From positions 20,309-84,308 of the forward strand of contig CAZSWO010000001.1 in the NCBI GenBank assembly GCA_964611115.1: a stretch of DNA of 64,000 nucleotides. Reading direction: 5' to 3'. Positions 30,356 to 51,792 of the stretch are shown here, one piece after another. The DNA comes from an uncultured Gammaproteobacteria bacterium. GTDB taxonomy: Bacteria; Patescibacteriota; Patescibacteriia; Patescibacteriales; Patescibacteriaceae. A program made the position numbers and the translations under genes. The notes beneath the pieces are model-generated. The model was not told the DNA's origin, ran no database searches, and saw only the letters and a program-made list of their open reading frames with translations. Position 1 is the stretch's first letter, and every line of letters begins with the position of its first letter.

Positions 30356-31300
30356 CTAGAAGCCGATAAACTGGATTTCTTCTTCGAGATCAATCTTAAA
30401 AGCTTCTCGAACTGATTGCTTGGTTTTCTGAGAGAGTGAATGAACATCAATCGCTTTGGCATTATTAGCGTTTACAATAAAGTTGGCATGCTTCTCGCTA
30501 ATTTTAGCTCCGCCCAATTCCTCGCCCTTTAATCCGAGTTGTTCAATCAGATATCCGGCGCCGATCTTGCCTCCCCTAATCTTTCCGTCAGTTTGGGCTC
30601 GCTTAAATAATTCCGGATTTATTTTTTCTACATCAGCCGCAAAAAGATTTTTAAAAATACAGCCGGCACTCGGCTCTTTGGGTTGAGATGTAACTCGATA
30701 ATTTTTATATTCCGCCATTATTTTTTCCATCGCGATTTTATCCTCCGAAGCCTTAAGGCGCAGGAGGACATCCCATACAATAAAGTGCGGTTCGGTTTTA
30801 AAACGACTCGAACGATATCTAAAATCGCAGTCATCTTTGTGATAATCAACCCAGCAATTTTTTTCCGAATCATAGACAACAACCGATTCAACAACCTTAT
30901 CGAATGATCCGCCGTGCGCACCGGCATTGCCGCGAATTGCACCGCCCATCGATCCGGGAATGCCGATTGACCATTCAATCCCGCTCAAGCTTTTTTCCAA
31001 AGCGGCTTCGGCTAGATCCCAAACCTGAACTGAAGCGCCGCAGATTATTTTCTCATCAGCAAATTCAAGCTTAGAATTATGAACCTTAACAACTAGTCCC
31101 TTAACGCCCTCATCATTAATTAAAATATTAGAACCGCCGCCGAGAACGGTAACAGGCAACCTATGTTCCCTGGCCCAAGCCCAGGCCGCCTCAACCTCAT
31201 CACGCGTTTCTAATTCGACAAAATATTGCGCATTCCCGCCAATCTTAAATGTAGAAAGTTGAGCGAGCGGATAATTTTCTTTTATTTTATTTTTTATCAT
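30356..31300 (-). CDS. murB: UDP-N-acetylmuramate dehydrogenase
   Basis: FKIGG, LGGGSNIL, GIPGSMGGA..GNAGA, SAGCIFKN, HANF. Confidence 0.97.
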   Translation of the reverse strand: MIKNKIKENYPLAQLSTFKIGGNAQYFVELETRDEVEAAWAWAREHRLPVTVLGGGSNILINDEGVKGLVVKVHNSKLEFADEKIICGASVQVWDLAEAALEKSLSGIEWSIGIPGSMGGAIRGNAGAHGGSFDKVVESVVVYDSEKNCWVDYHKDDCDFRYRSSRFKTEPHFIVWDVLLRLKASEDKIAMEKIMAEYKNYRVTSQPKEPSAGCIFKNLFAADVEKINPELFKRAQTDGKIRGGKIGAGYLIEQLGLKGEELGGAKISEKHANFIVNANNAKAIDVHSLSQKTKQSVREAFKIDLEEEIQFIGF

Positions 31301-31314
31301 ATAAATTTTTCTCC

Positions 31315-31394
31315 AGGTTCACCTCTCCCCGTCCCTCCCCGCATGCATGCGGGGAGGGTGGTCCGCTTTTTAGCGGACCGGGAGAGGTGAACTT
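31315..31394. repeat. 80-bp GC-rich branched palindrome (REP-like)
   Basis: Outer stem AGGTTCACCTCTCCC/GGGAGAGGTGAACTT enclosing CCCTCCCCGCATGCATGCGGGGAGGG and GGTCCGCT...AGCGGACC; overlaps the murC stop. Confidence 0.85.
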
Positions 31395-32764
31395 AGTAAT
31401 CGTTCTCCAATTCTAAAGACATCCCCCGCTCCCATTAATAAAATCAAATCCTTGTCACCGACAGTTTCTCTAAGATAGCTTTCAACTGCTGCTAAGTCTT
31501 TTAAATATTTCACTTCTTTTTTATCAGAAATATTTTTCTTAATTTCATCAGCAACTTGTTGTCCACTTATCTCGCCCTTTGTTTCCCGCGCTGATGTATA
31601 AATATCTAAAACAATTACTTCATCGGCCTTTGCAAAACTTTTAGCAAAGTCATCAAGCAAAGCTTCGGTTCGGCTAAAGGTATGCGGATGAAAGACAACG
31701 CGAATCTTTTTCTTCGGCCATTTCTGTTTGACCGCCGCCAGTGTCGCTTTTATTTCGGTTGGATGATGAGCATAATCATCAATAATCAAAGCGCCCTTAT
31801 ACTCGCCTAGTTTTTGCAGACGCCGCGCCGTTCCGCTAAATCCTTCTAAGCCGCGCCTAATCGCGAGCAGATCGGCGTTCAACTCTATAGCGGCGACGAT
31901 GACGGACGCCGCGTTTAAAATATTATGTTCGCCGTTTAACTGAATTGAAAAAGTTCCGACCTCGACACCGTCGAGTGAAAGACTGAAATATTGTTTGATT
32001 CCGTCATAACCGTCATTAGAAATAATATAATCACAATCTTTAAAACCGTAACTCACTACCCTGCCCTTACATTGTTCAGCTAATTTCTTGACTATCCTGT
32101 CATTAAAGTTCGCGATTAAAATTCCTGATTTAGGCAACTTAGAAATAAAATCTGCAAAAACTTGTTCGTAGCTCGCTTCATCTTTAAAAAAATCCGGATG
32201 ATCATAGTCAATATTATTAAGCACAATCATCTTCGGATTAAAGTATTGTAATTTATTTTGATACTCATCGGCCTCTATTACTAAGAGGTTTGATTTTCCG
32301 ACGAGACCGGCGCCGTTGAATTGCGGAACCTGCGCACCGACCATTACGTTCGGTTCGAGTCCGGCTTCTTTTAAAACGTAACCGAGCCAAGCCGTTGTAG
32401 TTGTTTTCCCGTGCGAACCGGCGACAGCTACGCCGTAGCGCGTATTGAAAACCGCGCCCATCGTTTCGGCATAAGTCGCTACTCTCATCTTATTCTCTAA
32501 AGCAAATTTTAATTCCTCATTATTATTCTCGTTATAAGCCGAAGAATATATCACTAAATCTGCTTCTCTGTTTAACTGCTCCGAATTAAATCCCTGAAAG
32601 ACTTTGATGCCCGCACGTTCTAGAACGGCGTCGGTCATGAATTTTTCGGCAATATCACTGCCGCTGATTTCATAGCCTTCATGCGCCAAAAACTCGGCGA
32701 GCATAGTCATTCCCACGCCTTTAATACCGATCATGTATATTTTCTTGATTTTCGAGAGATCCAC
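31370..32764 (-). CDS. murC: UDP-N-acetylmuramate--L-alanine ligase
   Basis: IGIKGVGM, GSHGKTTTT, IEADEY, NIDYDHPD, RRLQ, DDYAHHPTEI, FHPHTFSR; start likely GTG 32764. Confidence 0.96.
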   Translation of the reverse strand: MDLSKIKKIYMIGIKGVGMTMLAEFLAHEGYEISGSDIAEKFMTDAVLERAGIKVFQGFNSEQLNREADLVIYSSAYNENNNEELKFALENKMRVATYAETMGAVFNTRYGVAVAGSHGKTTTTAWLGYVLKEAGLEPNVMVGAQVPQFNGAGLVGKSNLLVIEADEYQNKLQYFNPKMIVLNNIDYDHPDFFKDEASYEQVFADFISKLPKSGILIANFNDRIVKKLAEQCKGRVVSYGFKDCDYIISNDGYDGIKQYFSLSLDGVEVGTFSIQLNGEHNILNAASVIVAAIELNADLLAIRRGLEGFSGTARRLQKLGEYKGALIIDDYAHHPTEIKATLAAVKQKWPKKKIRVVFHPHTFSRTEALLDDFAKSFAKADEVIVLDIYTSARETKGEISGQQVADEIKKNISDKKEVKYLKDLAAVESYLRETVGDKDLILLMGAGDVFRIGERLLSSPLPVR

Positions 32765-32768
32765 GTTG

Positions 32769-33824
32769 TTAAAAAATATATTTACTAATAATCTCCACCA
32801 TCGCATCATTCGCGCCTTGCTTCATCGCCTTTCTAATATTAGAGGCGAGTTCGTTTCGTTTTAATTCATTAGAACTTAAATCTTTTAAAGTAGAAATAAA
32901 AGTTTCAGGGGTTAGAGTTTTCTGATCTAAGACAATTGCAGCATCATGCTCTTTAAAATAATTCGCATTTTCTTCTTGATGCGAATCCGGGATCGGAATG
33001 ATGACCGAAGCTTTTCCTAAAAATGAAAGCTCGGAAAGTGTACCGAGTCCGGCGCGCGTTACAACAATATCTGCGCCCGCCAAGGCTTTGGCAATATAAG
33101 AATTATCAAGCAAGTCGTAGGACTGATAACCGACGATTTCTTTCTTAAGTTCTGATTTTGCATTGTGCTTACCCGTGATATGAACAACATCGGCAAAGCT
33201 TACAATTTGTTCGATTGAATTTTTTACCAAAGTATTGATTGATTCTGATCCTGTTCCTCCGCCTAACACTAAAATGCAAGGACGGTTATTTTGAGTTGCT
33301 TGAATTGAGAGAAAGGCAGAGCGAATTGGATTACCAATCCACACCGCATTCTTTCCATAATCTTTCAAACTTTTCTCAAAAGCCGTTGTAATTATAGAAG
33401 CGCAGGATGCCATAAGTTTATTGGCCAAACCGGGACGGATGTCCTGCTGATGAACGATAACCGGAATCCCTAAAATTTTTGCCGCCCAGGCCACAGGAAC
33501 GCTAACAAAACCGCCGGCGGTAATAACTAATTTAGGTTTATGTTTATAAAGAATTGATAATGACTGCAAAAATCCGATTTTGATATTGATGAGGTCGATA
33601 AGATTCTGCAATGAAAAATAACGGCGAAGTTTTCCCGCCGCAATCGGAATATAGTTGAAATCATACCCGGCCGTCATTGTTCGTTCAATTCCGTTATGAG
33701 TTCCGATCCAAATAATTTTGTTATCTTTGGGTAAAGACTCCGCAACCGCCAATAAGGGCGTGACCGAACCGCCGGTTCCGCCACCACTTAAGACGATTGC
33801 ATTATTTCTTATTCTTGATTTCAT
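32769..33824 (-). CDS. murG: Lipid II GlcNAc transferase
   Basis: GGGTGG, GGFVSVP, HQQD..PG.AN, GNPIR, GGGTGS, RAG, HQEENA. Confidence 0.95.
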   Translation of the reverse strand: MKSRIRNNAIVLSGGGTGGSVTPLLAVAESLPKDNKIIWIGTHNGIERTMTAGYDFNYIPIAAGKLRRYFSLQNLIDLINIKIGFLQSLSILYKHKPKLVITAGGFVSVPVAWAAKILGIPVIVHQQDIRPGLANKLMASCASIITTAFEKSLKDYGKNAVWIGNPIRSAFLSIQATQNNRPCILVLGGGTGSESINTLVKNSIEQIVSFADVVHITGKHNAKSELKKEIVGYQSYDLLDNSYIAKALAGADIVVTRAGLGTLSELSFLGKASVIIPIPDSHQEENANYFKEHDAAIVLDQKTLTPETFISTLKDLSSNELKRNELASNIRKAMKQGANDAMVEIISKYIF

Positions 33825-42540: not shown

Positions 42541-43344
42541 ATGAAACTAACAATTTTAGGTTCAGGCACATGCGCCTCTCAGTTACCGGGAATCCCTAAT
42601 AGGTTTCCCCCGGCATTTTTGGTGGAGTTTGGAAATGAAAAAGTATTATTTGACTGTAGTGAGGGTGTTCGCTTTCGTCTGGAACAAGCAGGGTTTAACC
42701 ATGCCGACATACATCACATTGCTATTTCCCATATCCACCCGGATCATTTCGCCCTAATCCACTTTATTCAATCTGTATTTTGTAATGGCATATGGGGTGG
42801 AACAAAAAATACAGATATTACTGTTTATTGTTCTAAACAAGTAAAAACGTCTTTCCCTTTTCTTCTAAAATCTCAAATCCCCGCGATTGACCTGCCTTCT
42901 TTTGCTAATTTCCTACGACCAAAGCTTATTATCGCGAATGATAACATCACAAAAATCGGTGACGCATCATTAACAGCTAAAAAAGTTTATCATGAGTTTG
43001 GAGAAACAGATGCCATTTCCTTCCGATTGGAAACACCGGAAGGAATTTTTGTTTATTCTGGTGATACGGGAGAATGTCCTGGAATTCGAGAGGTATGTAA
43101 AGACGCAGATCTTTTTGTCTGCGAAGCTTCATCTCGAGTAGGCGATGAAAAAGGCCCTATTGAGTACGGTCACCTTAATCCTCGCTTAGCGGGTGAAATT
43201 GCTCATGAAGGAAAGGTAAAACACTTAGTACTATTTCATTACACAGGCCTTGATTCTGACGAAGATATTATTACTGACTGTAGGAAGTCGGGTTTTACCG
43301 GCGAGTTAACAATTGCAAAAGATTTTCAATCTATTAATATATAA
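42541..43344 (+). CDS. MBL-fold metallo-hydrolase, RNase Z/ElaC-like without an exosite arm
   Basis: LTILGSG, LFDC.EG, HIHPDH, YSGDT, EAS, GHL, LFHY; ATG at 42541. Confidence 0.85.
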   Translation: MKLTILGSGTCASQLPGIPNRFPPAFLVEFGNEKVLFDCSEGVRFRLEQAGFNHADIHHIAISHIHPDHFALIHFIQSVFCNGIWGGTKNTDITVYCSKQVKTSFPFLLKSQIPAIDLPSFANFLRPKLIIANDNITKIGDASLTAKKVYHEFGETDAISFRLETPEGIFVYSGDTGECPGIREVCKDADLFVCEASSRVGDEKGPIEYGHLNPRLAGEIAHEGKVKHLVLFHYTGLDSDEDIITDCRKSGFTGELTIAKDFQSINI

Positions 43345-43354
43345 TCTCAACCGT

Positions 43355-43585
43355 ATGTGGCAGGAAGAAAATAACAAACTGGTTCGCGAATTTGAGTTCA
43401 AAGACTTTAGGGAGGCTTTTGCGTTTATGACGAAAGTCGCGGCGATTGCTGAAGAACTAAAGCATCATCCTGAATGGACTAACACCTATAACAAAGTAAC
43501 GATTAAGCTATCGACGCATGATGCCGGCGATATTGTTACGGAAAAAGATACAGAACTTGCGAAACGGATTGATGAGATAGTATAA
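43355..43585 (+). CDS. Pterin-4-alpha-carbinolamine dehydratase
   Basis: REFEFKDF..AF.F, HHPEW, LSTHDAG, KD.ELA; ATG at 43355. Confidence 0.93.
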   Translation: MWQEENNKLVREFEFKDFREAFAFMTKVAAIAEELKHHPEWTNTYNKVTIKLSTHDAGDIVTEKDTELAKRIDEIV

Positions 43586-43625
43586 GGCTCAACTCACTCA
43601 GGGCTCAACTCACCTCTACCCTCTA

Positions 43626-43672
43626 CTCTACCCCCAGCCCCTCCTCACGCTTACGCGTAAGGAGGGGTGACT
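43626..43672. repeat. Left palindromic inverted repeat of the DUF559 module
   Basis: CTCTACCCCCAGCCCCTCCTCA...TAAGGAGGGGTGACT; near-identical to the reverse complement of 44064-44112. Confidence 0.85.
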
Positions 43673-43696
43673 TTTATTCAAGTAAATACTTTTAAT

Positions 43697-44065
43697 ATGT
43701 CCTATATCAATAAACTTTCTATTGCTCGTGAATTTAGGAATAATCCAACACGTGCGGAAAATATATTATGGAACGCGATAAAAAGAAACCAAATTTTAGG
43801 ATACAGATTTAGAAGACAATATGTTGTAACAGGATTTATCTTGGATTTTTATTGCCCAAAACTAAGATTAGCAATTGAAGTCGATGGTGAAATACATAGC
43901 TTAAATTCTAATCAAATAAAAGATTTAGAAAGAGAAAATATCATTAAACAATATAATATTTATATTATTAGATTTACAAACAAAGAAATAGAAGAAAATA
44001 TAATAACTGCATTAACAAATTTAAAGAAATACATTAAAAATATAGAACAAAAGAATTATACCTAG
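43697..44065 (+). CDS. DUF559 (Vsr-like PD-(D/E)xK) endonuclease domain protein
   Basis: AREFRNNPT.AE..LW..I, FRRQ, ILDFYC..LRLAIEVDG.IH, IIRFTN; very AT-rich. Confidence 0.93.
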   Translation: MSYINKLSIAREFRNNPTRAENILWNAIKRNQILGYRFRRQYVVTGFILDFYCPKLRLAIEVDGEIHSLNSNQIKDLERENIIKQYNIYIIRFTNKEIEENIITALTNLKKYIKNIEQKNYT

Positions 44066-44112
44066 TCTCCCCTCCTTATTCGCCTGCGAATGAGGAGGGG
44101 TCGGGGGTAGAG
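44064..44112. repeat. Right palindromic inverted repeat of the DUF559 module
   Basis: AGTCTCCCCTCCTTA...TGAGGAGGGGTCGGGGGTAGAG. Confidence 0.85.
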
Positions 44113-44116
44113 GCTC

Positions 44117-44145
44117 TTGATTTTTTTCTAAAAACCTGCTACATT
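44117..44145 (+). promoter_or_regulatory. Sigma70-type promoter
   Basis: TTGATT-17-TACATT with a TG extension. Confidence 0.6.
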
Positions 44146-44183
44146 TCAAATCTAATTAAACGCACTTTGAAAGGAGGAAGCGA

Positions 44184-44507
44184 TTGAATAAGAAACTTGA
44201 AGTAATGCTAATCGGTTCCCCCGATAATGCACTTCTTGCTTATATTGCCGCACGTATCGCAGGAATGAAAAAAATAGAAACACTCGACATACATTTTAAA
44301 GTTATCATTGTTGATCCTTGGGAGATAAATAAAGAAGACAAGCGAACTTCAATGGAAGAAATGCTCAAGAAGATGGCGGAGGAAAATATTAATGCAACTC
44401 ATTTTGACTCAGGCCCATCAAGGCTTGTGCGACGTAAAGAAGCCAACCTGCTACGAAAATTTCAACACAAGAATGTTAAGACTAAATTCAAAAGTCTTAA
44501 ACGCTAA
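44184..44507 (+). CDS. Hypothetical protein (ORFan)
   Basis: TTG start with AAGGAGG SD, own promoter and terminator. Confidence 0.7.
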   Translation: MNKKLEVMLIGSPDNALLAYIAARIAGMKKIETLDIHFKVIIVDPWEINKEDKRTSMEEMLKKMAEENINATHFDSGPSRLVRRKEANLLRKFQHKNVKTKFKSLKR

Positions 44508-51700: not shown

Positions 51701-51729
51701 ACTGACAATGTATCATAGCGTAGAAAATT

Positions 51730-51765
51730 AAAAAACCCCTGTTTAATGTTTTCATTAAACAGGGG
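51730..51765 (-). terminator. Rho-independent terminator
   Basis: CCCCTGTTTAATG-aaaa-CATTAAACAGGGG followed by a T run. Confidence 0.85.
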
Positions 51766-51792
51766 CACCTCAAAGAGGATTTTTAAGAACTA

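Follow-up and report, generated by a model that had tools for sequence, protein, structure and literature searches.

A DUF559 endonuclease gene enclosed by inverted hairpin modules: a probable copy of a widespread nuclease-in-palindrome cassette family

What kind of unit is formed by two inverted copies of a hairpin and a small endonuclease gene that fits exactly between them, and could the nuclease act on the hairpins that enclose it? The question is raised by a stretch of 64,000 nucleotides from contig CAZSWO010000001.1 of assembly GCA_964611115.1 (the window, meaning the whole stretch that was analysed), in which a gene for a DUF559 endonuclease lies between two inverted hairpin modules. 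The segment 43626-44112 is probably one copy of a widespread "nuclease-in-palindrome" cassette family, analogous either to the repetitive extragenic palindromic (REP) doublets forming hairpins (REPINs) with their REP-associated tyrosine transposases (RAYTs) or to a free-standing homing cassette, and we infer that its nuclease acts on the hairpins. At orthologous sites the system is present, absent or swapped, and its elements nest in one another.

Anatomy of the element

The left module (IR-L, 43626-43672, plus strand) consists of the outer arm CTCTACCCCC (43626-43635), a hairpin and the inner tail TGACT, with the base stem 43638-43645 paired to 43660-43667, the upper stem 43647-43650 paired to 43655-43658 around the loop 43651-43654, and C43646 mismatched with A43659. 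A leader of 29 nt (TGACTTTTATTCA..., 43668-43696, plus strand; 24 nt when counted from the end of IR-L) leads from the hairpin to the start codon, and it is conserved in comparison with loci L013, L035, L212, L213 and L217, its first 13 nt being kept even in gene-less doublets. The DUF559 gene (43697-44065, plus strand) encodes 122 amino acids and a stop, and its product belongs to Pfam PF04480 with the Vsr-like PD-(D/E)xK fold; the stop codon TAG (44063-44065) overlaps the edge of the right module (IR-R, 44064-44112, minus strand). IR-R is an inverted copy of IR-L, having its outer arm GGGGGTAGAG at 44103-44112, a base stem of 44069-44076 with 44093-44100, an upper stem of 44078-44082 with 44087-44091, and T44077 opposite G44092, which is the mismatch of IR-L read from the other strand.

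Repeat finding gave inverted outer arms of 22 nt (43626-43647 and 44091-44112, 91% complementary), inverted inner ends of 15 nt (43658-43672 and 44064-44078, 93% complementary), and self-hairpin arms of 13 bp on the left (43638-43650/43655-43667) and 15 bp on the right (44069-44083/44086-44100). Folded as single-stranded DNA, the module hairpins reach -11.8 to -14.8 kcal/mol with z from -3.5 to -5.0 (z=-4.9 for IR-L). The G+C content of the gene is 23-31%, against about 42-48% in the neighbouring genes. A preliminary description made from the sequence had already reported the near-identical inverted copies, the hairpin within each, the overlap of stop codon and right repeat and the strong AT-richness of the gene, and all of these were recovered here. 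Its proposed search for the CCC(C)TCC-loop-GGAGGG motif, run as CCCCTCCT-N(6-30)-AGGAGGGG, gave exactly two matches in the 64 kb, where shuffles expect 0.00; the 22-nt outer arm likewise occurs only at these two sites with up to three mismatches allowed (chance expectation 0.00). The covariance model scored IR-L at 66.1 bits (E=1.6e-13) and IR-R at 61.6 bits on the minus strand, the next unrelated site in the window reaching at most 20 bits, and these two are the only full modules that it found in the window. A further weak covariance match at 51725-51770 is an ordinary terminator.

The mechanical open reading frame (ORF) opens with GTG at 43667, and this start was rejected: ATG 43697 (MSYINK...) is kept in all homologues, and in the copy at L119 (88% identical) the corresponding upstream GTG frame meets a stop, which indicates that ATG 43697 is the real start codon. 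The sole Rfam match in the window was a tRNA-Glu, with no known RNA family at the modules, and neither a terminator-like site nor a convincing promoter was called in 43300-44400, so that the hairpins were rejected as intrinsic terminators or promoters.

From outside to inside, a module begins with the C-rich arm CTCTACCCCC and two bases that vary; a G/C-rich base stem of 8 bp (CCCCTCCT/AGGAGGGG) follows, then the conserved C.A mismatch, an upper stem of 4-5 bp, a 4-nt loop and the inner tail (T/A)GACT, with a total length of about 47 nt. The upper stems differ between the two ends of the element (ACGC/GCGT versus ATTCG/CGAAT). The opposite strand folds better because C.A becomes a T.G wobble there, IR-L reaching -14.8 kcal/mol on that strand versus -12.9. 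In a MAFFT alignment of 29 modules, 95% of the cells in the proposed helix are paired, against 48-65% when the partner is slid, and double-sided changes number 48, versus 17.7 in shuffles, none of 500 shuffles reaching 48. Among the 56 modules having a perfect base stem, the adjacent pair at position 9, read from outer to inner, is C.A in 34, C.G in 20 and T.G in none, and at least 25 different upper stems stand over the invariant base stem; these module counts are not phylogenetically independent. The pattern indicates that the modules are under selection for structure, with the upper stem kept by compensatory changes.

The encoded protein matches Pfam PF04480 with 89.9 bits (cut-off 20.6; E=1.2e-25) over profile positions 4-107 of 109, and the NCBIfam DUF559 model with 55 bits, which is under the cut-off of 218 for that equivalog. 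The residues D50, E61, D63 and H67 of a D...E-x-D-G-x-x-H core are invariant across 25 homologues and present here. The AlphaFold2 model (predicted local distance difference test score, pLDDT, 81.6) has as its best fold match 3HRL, a DUF559 protein of Neisseria (template modelling, TM, score 0.71/0.91), followed by 3R3P, the catalytic domain of the homing endonuclease I-Bth0305I, a weak match (Foldseek E=4.7e-4; TM 0.64/0.77) whose profile similarity is also weak (E=6e-3); E. coli Vsr (1VSR) comes just 21st, with E=0.43. Weak matches to PHROG "homing endonuclease" families were also obtained (E=8e-5 to 9e-4). Vsr nicks at T.G mismatches (PMC3424549), and the T.G/C.A pair of the modules, taken together with the T.G nicking of this relative, is a lead and not evidence.

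DUF559 is the sole ORF encoded by the element, which has no other relevant Pfam match. PADLOC returned only weak, domain-level matches, and membership of a defence system was rejected on that ground. Carriage by phages or plasmids was rejected as well, the matches being few, weak or distant: 2.9 million viral contigs held 0 motif matches and 10 distant DUF559 relatives, the phage search gave 2 weak matches and the plasmid search 38 distant ones. Some annotated DUF559 proteins (P0018-P0023 and those of L043, L045 and L050) end in ...SPLCPEGVERG or ...PLSAPKGKRGVRGE, which is the downstream hairpin in translation; such hairpin-derived tails are an annotation artefact, which is probably common wherever these palindromes occur.

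Association of DUF559 genes with hairpins across phyla

The comparative data come almost entirely from metagenome-assembled genomes (MAGs) and short contigs. The first motif scan, covering one genome per species with 18 specified bases of the outer arm and stem, gave 38 matches, about 12 of which are real modules; five of these abut DUF559 genes and four form gene-less inverted pairs. A protein survey, with a profile built from 25 DUF559 homologues, retrieved 80 loci spanning Patescibacteria, Bacteroidota, Chloroflexota, Gemmatimonadota, Spirochaetota, Cyanobacteria, Margulisiibacteriota and others, and the bracket layout recurs among them, for example in the isolates Spirosoma panaciterrae DSM 21099 (L057) and Maribacter huludaoensis (L102), in a Dehalococcoidia genome (L106) and in a Peregrinibacteria genome (L046). 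Perfect 7-bp hairpins with the pyrimidine arm first (C-first) occur at 3.14 per kb within about 200 nt of the ends of DUF559 genes and at 0.18 per kb elsewhere in the same 72 loci, a difference of about 17-fold; 38 loci carry such a hairpin upstream, 44 downstream and 28 on both sides. Oriented modules number 54 at the ends of DUF559 genes, versus 12 in the other 407 kb, and none was found in the 372 kb of control loci around Bacteroidota genes for pterin-4a-carbinolamine dehydratase (PCD); the outer arm is directed away from the gene in 44 of the 54. The survey of DUF559 flanks suggested in the preliminary description thus returned paired inverted palindromes strongly enriched at gene ends across phyla. 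In the cyanobacterial locus L096, C-run/G-run hairpins flank the DUF559 gene. In the Bacteroidales locus L107 (2481-2933), at least 10 tandem units of 42 nt, each with a C-first hairpin and an outer arm, precede the DUF559 gene, and in L107, L102 and L075 the outer arm points toward the gene, opposite to the layout in bacteria of the candidate phyla radiation (CPR).

The left and right repeats of a gene also belong together. Each upstream flank was aligned to the reverse complement of every downstream flank, and of 77 candidates the own partner was the best in 31 loci and among the top three in 45, with a median score of 37 for own pairs versus 18 for cross pairs. Repeat similarity tracks protein similarity (Mantel r=0.22, p=5e-4). 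The CAZRDY MAG contains three DUF559 paralogues with three repeat subtypes, each matching the same protein subfamily in other genomes and not the host, and paralogues within one genome are only 47-68% identical. These comparisons indicate that a gene and its two modules evolve as one unit.

The unrelated PDDEXK_3/GxxExxY family of small nucleases served as a control, with C-first hairpins at 0 of 69 loci upstream and 1 of 69 downstream. A PDDEXK_3 gene at L006 had raised the idea that this family is an alternative cargo of the same bracket, and the idea was rejected since these 69 loci are without C-first hairpins and have repeats of their own. In CPR bacteria and Bacteroidota (L226-L305) the PDDEXK_3 genes carry the inverted repeats GTCWGAACCACTGATTnnCACTGATT... 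/ ...AATCAGTGGTTCWGAC (for example L226, 1120-1200 and 1600-1650), a type also written GTCWGAACCACTGATT, and when left and right flanks are matched, a locus's own partner ranks first among 69 candidates in 19 loci and within the top three in 37; the family appears to be a second case of a small nuclease plus cognate repeats. At L006/L226 (CAZRDY010000001.1) a PDDEXK_3 element with its own repeats lies inside a degenerate palindromic element of the CTCTACCCCC type; it landed there as an element in its own right, and it exemplifies how unrelated small elements nest in these palindromes.

Brackets occur both with and without a gene. Their contents are bimodal, the inner length being 360-520 nt where a DUF559 gene is present and 28-146 nt otherwise, and a motif-only scan of metagenome contigs gave 22 loci, with 8 having DUF559, about 12 being doublets (mostly with a 28-nt spacer) and 2 being solo modules. 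The doublet spacer opens with the first 13 nt of the gene leader (TGACTTGTATTCA) and is palindromic around TTCAcGTGAA. Gene-bearing and gene-less forms stand on one contig in Ga0265297_10001018 (L204, L220). Three wastewater runs hold the window at 100% identity in independent assemblies, and the same runs hold contigs of similar depth with doublet and single modules in other contexts. Dispersed copies, which the preliminary description had proposed to look for, are therefore present, gene-less REPIN-like doublets among them; the 64-kb window holds no regions orthologous to the doublet loci, so that no empty sites were found for doublets.

In many independent copies (L122, L212, L215, L216, L217, L223, L225 and L120), the sequence T-N3-TGAAAA(Y)AAAAA lies directly outside the outer arm, often abutting a terminator hairpin; it is similar to the middle of the doublet spacer (TTCAcGTGAAAAC) and may be a part of the element, a preferred target or the tail of a terminator. 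The doublet spacer of L217 (10160-10340) holds a further, unrelated palindromic insert (GTGTCATCCTGAAC...GGGACAGGATGACAC).

In the window itself, a scan for C-first hairpins revealed a gene-less palindromic element of a related but diverged type at 31316-31393, between the minus-strand genes murB (30356-31300) and murC (31370-32809). The element is Y-shaped, with two hairpins, one of them C-first, inside a 13-bp outer stem, GTTCACCTCTCCC/GGGAGAGGTGAAC (covariance match 20 bits, E=0.006; DNA fold -39.1 kcal/mol, z=-10.9), and the DUF559 genes in L051 and L044 have right flanks that are laid out in this way too. The murC ORF takes its final residues (SPLPVR) from this element, so that its annotated C-terminus may be spurious.

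History of the site in relatives

The gene upstream of the element encodes PCD (Pfam E=3e-30), with its stop codon at 43583-43585, and the arrangement def-fmt-tRNA-Glu-...-PCD-DUF559 recurs in relatives, in which the identities of DUF559, PCD and fmt fall together: 88%, 89% and 97% in L119; 83%, 78% and 90% in Falkowbacteria UBA2355 (L029); and 67%, 71% and 68% in Falkowbacteria GCA_026396835 (L122). Among orthologues the dN/dS ratio of DUF559 is 0.07-0.19, indicating purifying selection, and at dS values of 0.46-2.6 IR-L is yet 89-98% and IR-R 80-98% identical, with compensatory changes in the upper stem. The copy in the window is thus an old, vertically inherited and functional gene and not a recently mobile element.

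The site has nevertheless had different occupants. The empty-site allele that was looked for in syntenic relatives was found in L126 (PCD 84%), in which fmt, tRNA-Glu, PCD, M23 peptidase and murF are in order and the sequence passes from the PCD stop codon straight to a terminator, with no element. In L125 (PCD 93%) the same site is occupied by a 54%-identical DUF559 gene of another subfamily, the element ending in GGCTCAACTCACCCCTAACCCCTCTC; in L125/L050 this sequence forms the left end, still intact, of a different DUF559 element that occupies the site, and in L119 and UBA2355 it is also found outside the repeat. This second element type is nested in the remnant of the window's type in L127/L043 and L032, alternating outer arms are piled outside the right ends in L001/L039, L050 and L045, and a further copy elsewhere in GCA_026396835 (L121) has its own matched repeat pair.

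Traces of a comparable history flank the element in the window. The left scar region (43586-43625, plus strand) is a stuttered stretch of 40 nt with two copies of GGCTCAACTCAC (43586-43597 and 43602-43613, direct repeat D10) and two partial CTCTAC(C/T) units, the twofold repeat and the threefold CTCTAC noted in the preliminary description both being present, and the right remnant (44113-44120, plus strand) is GCTCTTGA, as delimited by eye in a comparison of flanks. In UBA2355 a motif of the GGCTCAACTCAC type stands outside the repeat and the matching right arm TTAGGGGTGAGTTGA is still present; L119 has the motif too. The window's GCTCTTGA aligns, with 20 nt deleted, with TAGCTCTT[taagagggttaggggtgagt]TGA of UBA2355, the degraded right end of an outer element of the AACTCACCCC type. 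AGGCTC, which had been noted on both outer sides (43585-43590 and 44111-44116) as a possible target duplication, is indeed present there, and the comparison of orthologues rejects that interpretation: the left copy lies 35 nt outside the repeat, within GGCTCAACTCAC, the outer arm of the second element type, and the right copy can be aligned with what remains, in degraded form, of this second type in the UBA2355 orthologue. We infer from these alignments that the left stutter and the right remnant are scars of serial nesting or replacement at one site.

Some observations concern the surroundings and the host. A 107-aa ORF directly downstream of the element (44184-44507) has no Pfam, NCBIfam or PHROG match and is absent from L126 and L122. 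The MAGs L124-L127 and L040-L051 are syntenic with the window (fmt 75-80% amino acid identity, tRNA-Glu 100%, PCD 84-95%), and the window is close to Candidatus Falkowbacteria UBA2355 as well (fmt 90%); by these comparisons the window appears to belong to a Falkowbacteria-like CPR bacterium, so that the "Gammaproteobacteria" titles of these MAGs look wrong. The PCD of the lineage (43355-43582) is 64-76% identical to many Bacteroidota PCDs (L128-L203), which is unusually close for phyla so far apart and may reflect horizontal transfer.

Explanations weighed and known systems compared

In the nuclease-in-palindrome reading, the DUF559 protein would recognise its own folded module, either as a cruciform or as a single-stranded hairpin with its mismatch, and would introduce a nick there or close by; if the break were then repaired with another element as template, the gene would spread into gene-less palindromes in a homing-like way, and/or doublets would multiply as in REPIN-RAYT systems. 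The preliminary description had likewise proposed a hairpin-associated module analogous to REP/RAYT with a different nuclease fold, and this holds with respect to the enrichment, the empty site, the doublets and the co-variation of subtypes, and does not hold for recent mobility or a target duplication.

Several results weigh against this reading. DUF559 has diverged in step with its neighbours, as expected of vertical inheritance over the whole period sampled; near-identical copies indicating recent movement were not found, and no direct repeats flank the element ends in the window, L119, UBA2355, L121 or L122. The copy number is low, with one bracketed gene and one diverged solo element in 64 kb, about 40% of the DUF559 loci in the broad sample are without a clear repeat pair by the detectors used, and a minority of modules have the outer arm inward. 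G.T pairs number 42 on the inner-to-outer strand versus 7 on the other, a count inflated by the shared ancestry of the modules, and their polarity is suggestive only. In the Falkowbacteria-like lineage, the system resembles a resident of long standing more than an invader that is still active.

The nesting and mutual replacement of elements at palindromic sites would also fit palindromes that are REP-like and spread by another enzyme or by recombination, the DUF559 genes being free-standing, homing-type passengers that only land in them, or are kept there, and do not mobilise them; one such palindrome (L006/L226) has received a PDDEXK_3 element as well, the nearest characterised relative of the protein is a homing endonuclease, and copies with a gene are no more common than those without. 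That the genes are passengers is nonetheless unlikely in our judgement, for the repeat subtype follows the DUF559 subfamily even among the paralogues of one genome, the left and right repeats of one gene match far beyond chance, in every orthologue gene and bracket fit each other exactly, the stop codon lying within the repeat, and no other candidate enzyme was seen within the 64-kb window. The vertical inheritance and the purifying selection on gene and hairpins would in turn suit cis-regulatory elements of a transcript, acting as mRNA stabilisers, RNase III sites or Shine-Dalgarno-hiding insulators of a host housekeeping or toxic nuclease, with the gene-less copies as unrelated uses. The hairpin 3' arms do carry AAGGAGG paired to the anti-Shine-Dalgarno mimic CCTCCTT, and on the sense strand one pair of the right hairpin is compatible with G.U. 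The left hairpin, however, has the destabilising C.A version on this strand (-12.9 versus -14.8 kcal/mol for the other strand), the distance from AAGGAGG down to the ATG is 31 nt, no site resembling a terminator was called, the mirror symmetry around the gene is unfit for a transcript read in one direction, and doublets, nesting, an empty site and a subtype swap at one site are unexpected for a regulatory element; a purely regulatory role is accordingly given little credence.

Inverted repeats of 47 nt on both sides of a gene would also allow it to flip as a programmed switch that turns the nuclease on or off, and predicted targets of programmed inversion are enriched in the entry "DUF559 domain-containing protein" with an odds ratio of 14.3 (PMC9881135). 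This 14-fold enrichment is more simply explained by the repeat architecture of the bracket. The gene is co-oriented with PCD in the window, L119/L120, UBA2355, L122/L123, L124, L218 and L125 with its other subfamily, no recombinase gene is adjacent, and the gene fills the whole bracket, so that nothing outside it would be switched. Contigs of four runs contain no strand-switch joint, which as contigs cannot exclude rare variants, and a "skip" joint in them is a separate gene-less doublet and not an excision; inversion is thus held to be very improbable. A chance similarity or an assembly artefact has next to no probability: most relatives do come from MAGs, and contigs often break at these repeats (L124, L039), but shuffles expect 0.00 matches, the isolate genomes L057 and L102 have the same architecture, and the independent assemblies of three runs agree at 100% identity.

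Among known systems, the closest analogue in working appears to be REPIN-RAYT, in which palindromes flank a nuclease gene, inverted doublets occur, persistence is vertical and subtypes are matched (10.1101/2021.07.10.451892, PMC3337134, PMC5581495). The DUF559 gene is similarly flanked by inverted imperfect palindromes that also form short-spacer inverted doublets, it is inherited vertically under purifying selection, and its subtype is matched by that of the repeats. The enzyme differs, being a PD-(D/E)xK Vsr-like DUF559 protein and not an HUH/Y1 (IS200-like) tyrosine transposase, and genomes contain several diverged DUF559 paralogues, each with its own repeats, versus one RAYT. REPIN-RAYT systems have tens to hundreds of copies per genome; the 64 kb contain two modules and one diverged solo element, and further copies are present at similar depth on other contigs of the same samples. 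At their 5' head, REP palindromes bear a conserved tetranucleotide, GTAG or CGTC (PMC3733652); here the only GTAG is that of the outer arm GGGGGTAGAG, on the 3' side of the stem, and sister subtypes have GTGAG or GTGGAG. Membership of the REPIN-RAYT class therefore fails because of the enzyme class and the position of GTAG.

The free-standing or intron-borne homing endonucleases of the EDxHD/I-Bth0305I (Vsr-like) family (PMC3239194) have a fold and catalytic core distantly related to those of the DUF559 protein, and presence/absence and allele replacement at a fixed site are common to both; the DUF559 gene, in contrast, is intergenic and not in an intron, intein or coding target, has its own structured inverted repeats and doublets, and belongs to a family that is rare in viral contigs. 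Terminal inverted repeats, bimodal size, short forms keeping the termini and the first leader bases, and nested insertions are reminiscent of insertion sequences and miniature inverted-repeat transposable elements, but there is neither a DDE, serine, tyrosine or HUH transposase nor a target-site duplication here, and the termini are hairpins whose upper stem is conserved in structure and not in sequence. Integrons hold small promoter-less genes bounded by imperfect palindromes, the attC sites, which are recognised as folded single strands with mismatched bases; one attC follows each cassette, and an integrase and attI are required. The elements described here have two inverted modules per gene and lack both an integrase and an array. 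The small dispersed repeats of cyanobacteria treated by Elhai et al. in 2008 are reportedly very short palindromes that insert into one another and have no known mobilising enzyme; compared by description, similar C-run/G-run hairpins flank DUF559 in L096, and we know of no reported link of those repeats to DUF559.

A wider reading is possible and is put forward tentatively: DUF559 proteins may be the cognate nucleases of pan-bacterial C-run/G-run palindromic repeats, a PD-(D/E)xK counterpart of REPIN-RAYT and possibly the missing enzyme for small nested repeats such as those of cyanobacteria. Each DUF559 subfamily would then recognise its own folded module, perhaps through the T.G/C.A mismatch in the way that Vsr recognises T.G, and nicking would trigger the copying of gene-bearing and gene-less units into other palindromes. 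A literature search on DUF559, PF04480, GxxExxY, the repeat sequences and Vsr-like palindromic mobile elements found no description of the association, its only trace being a table in which DUF559 proteins are enriched 14-fold among predicted inversion targets. This suggests that the palindromic repeats described here are paired with a type of nuclease to which such repeats had not been linked before.

DUF559 is among the commonest bacterial domains of unknown function, and its members are annotated as "endonuclease domain-containing protein" or, misleadingly, as "very-short-patch-repair endonuclease"; a defined hairpin with a defined mismatch is the first concrete substrate hypothesis for the family, and nucleases that read such a hairpin would be attractive reagents. 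If true, the association would account for G/C-rich intergenic palindromes that break metagenome assemblies and yield spurious PLSP.../GEG... protein tails. The repeats of the PDDEXK_3 genes hint that a small stand-alone nuclease plus cognate inverted repeats is a general type of bacterial selfish or domesticated element, and the DUF559 elements would, if the reading is true, represent a second, mechanistically independent long-term coexistence of a nuclease with its repeats beside REPIN-RAYT.

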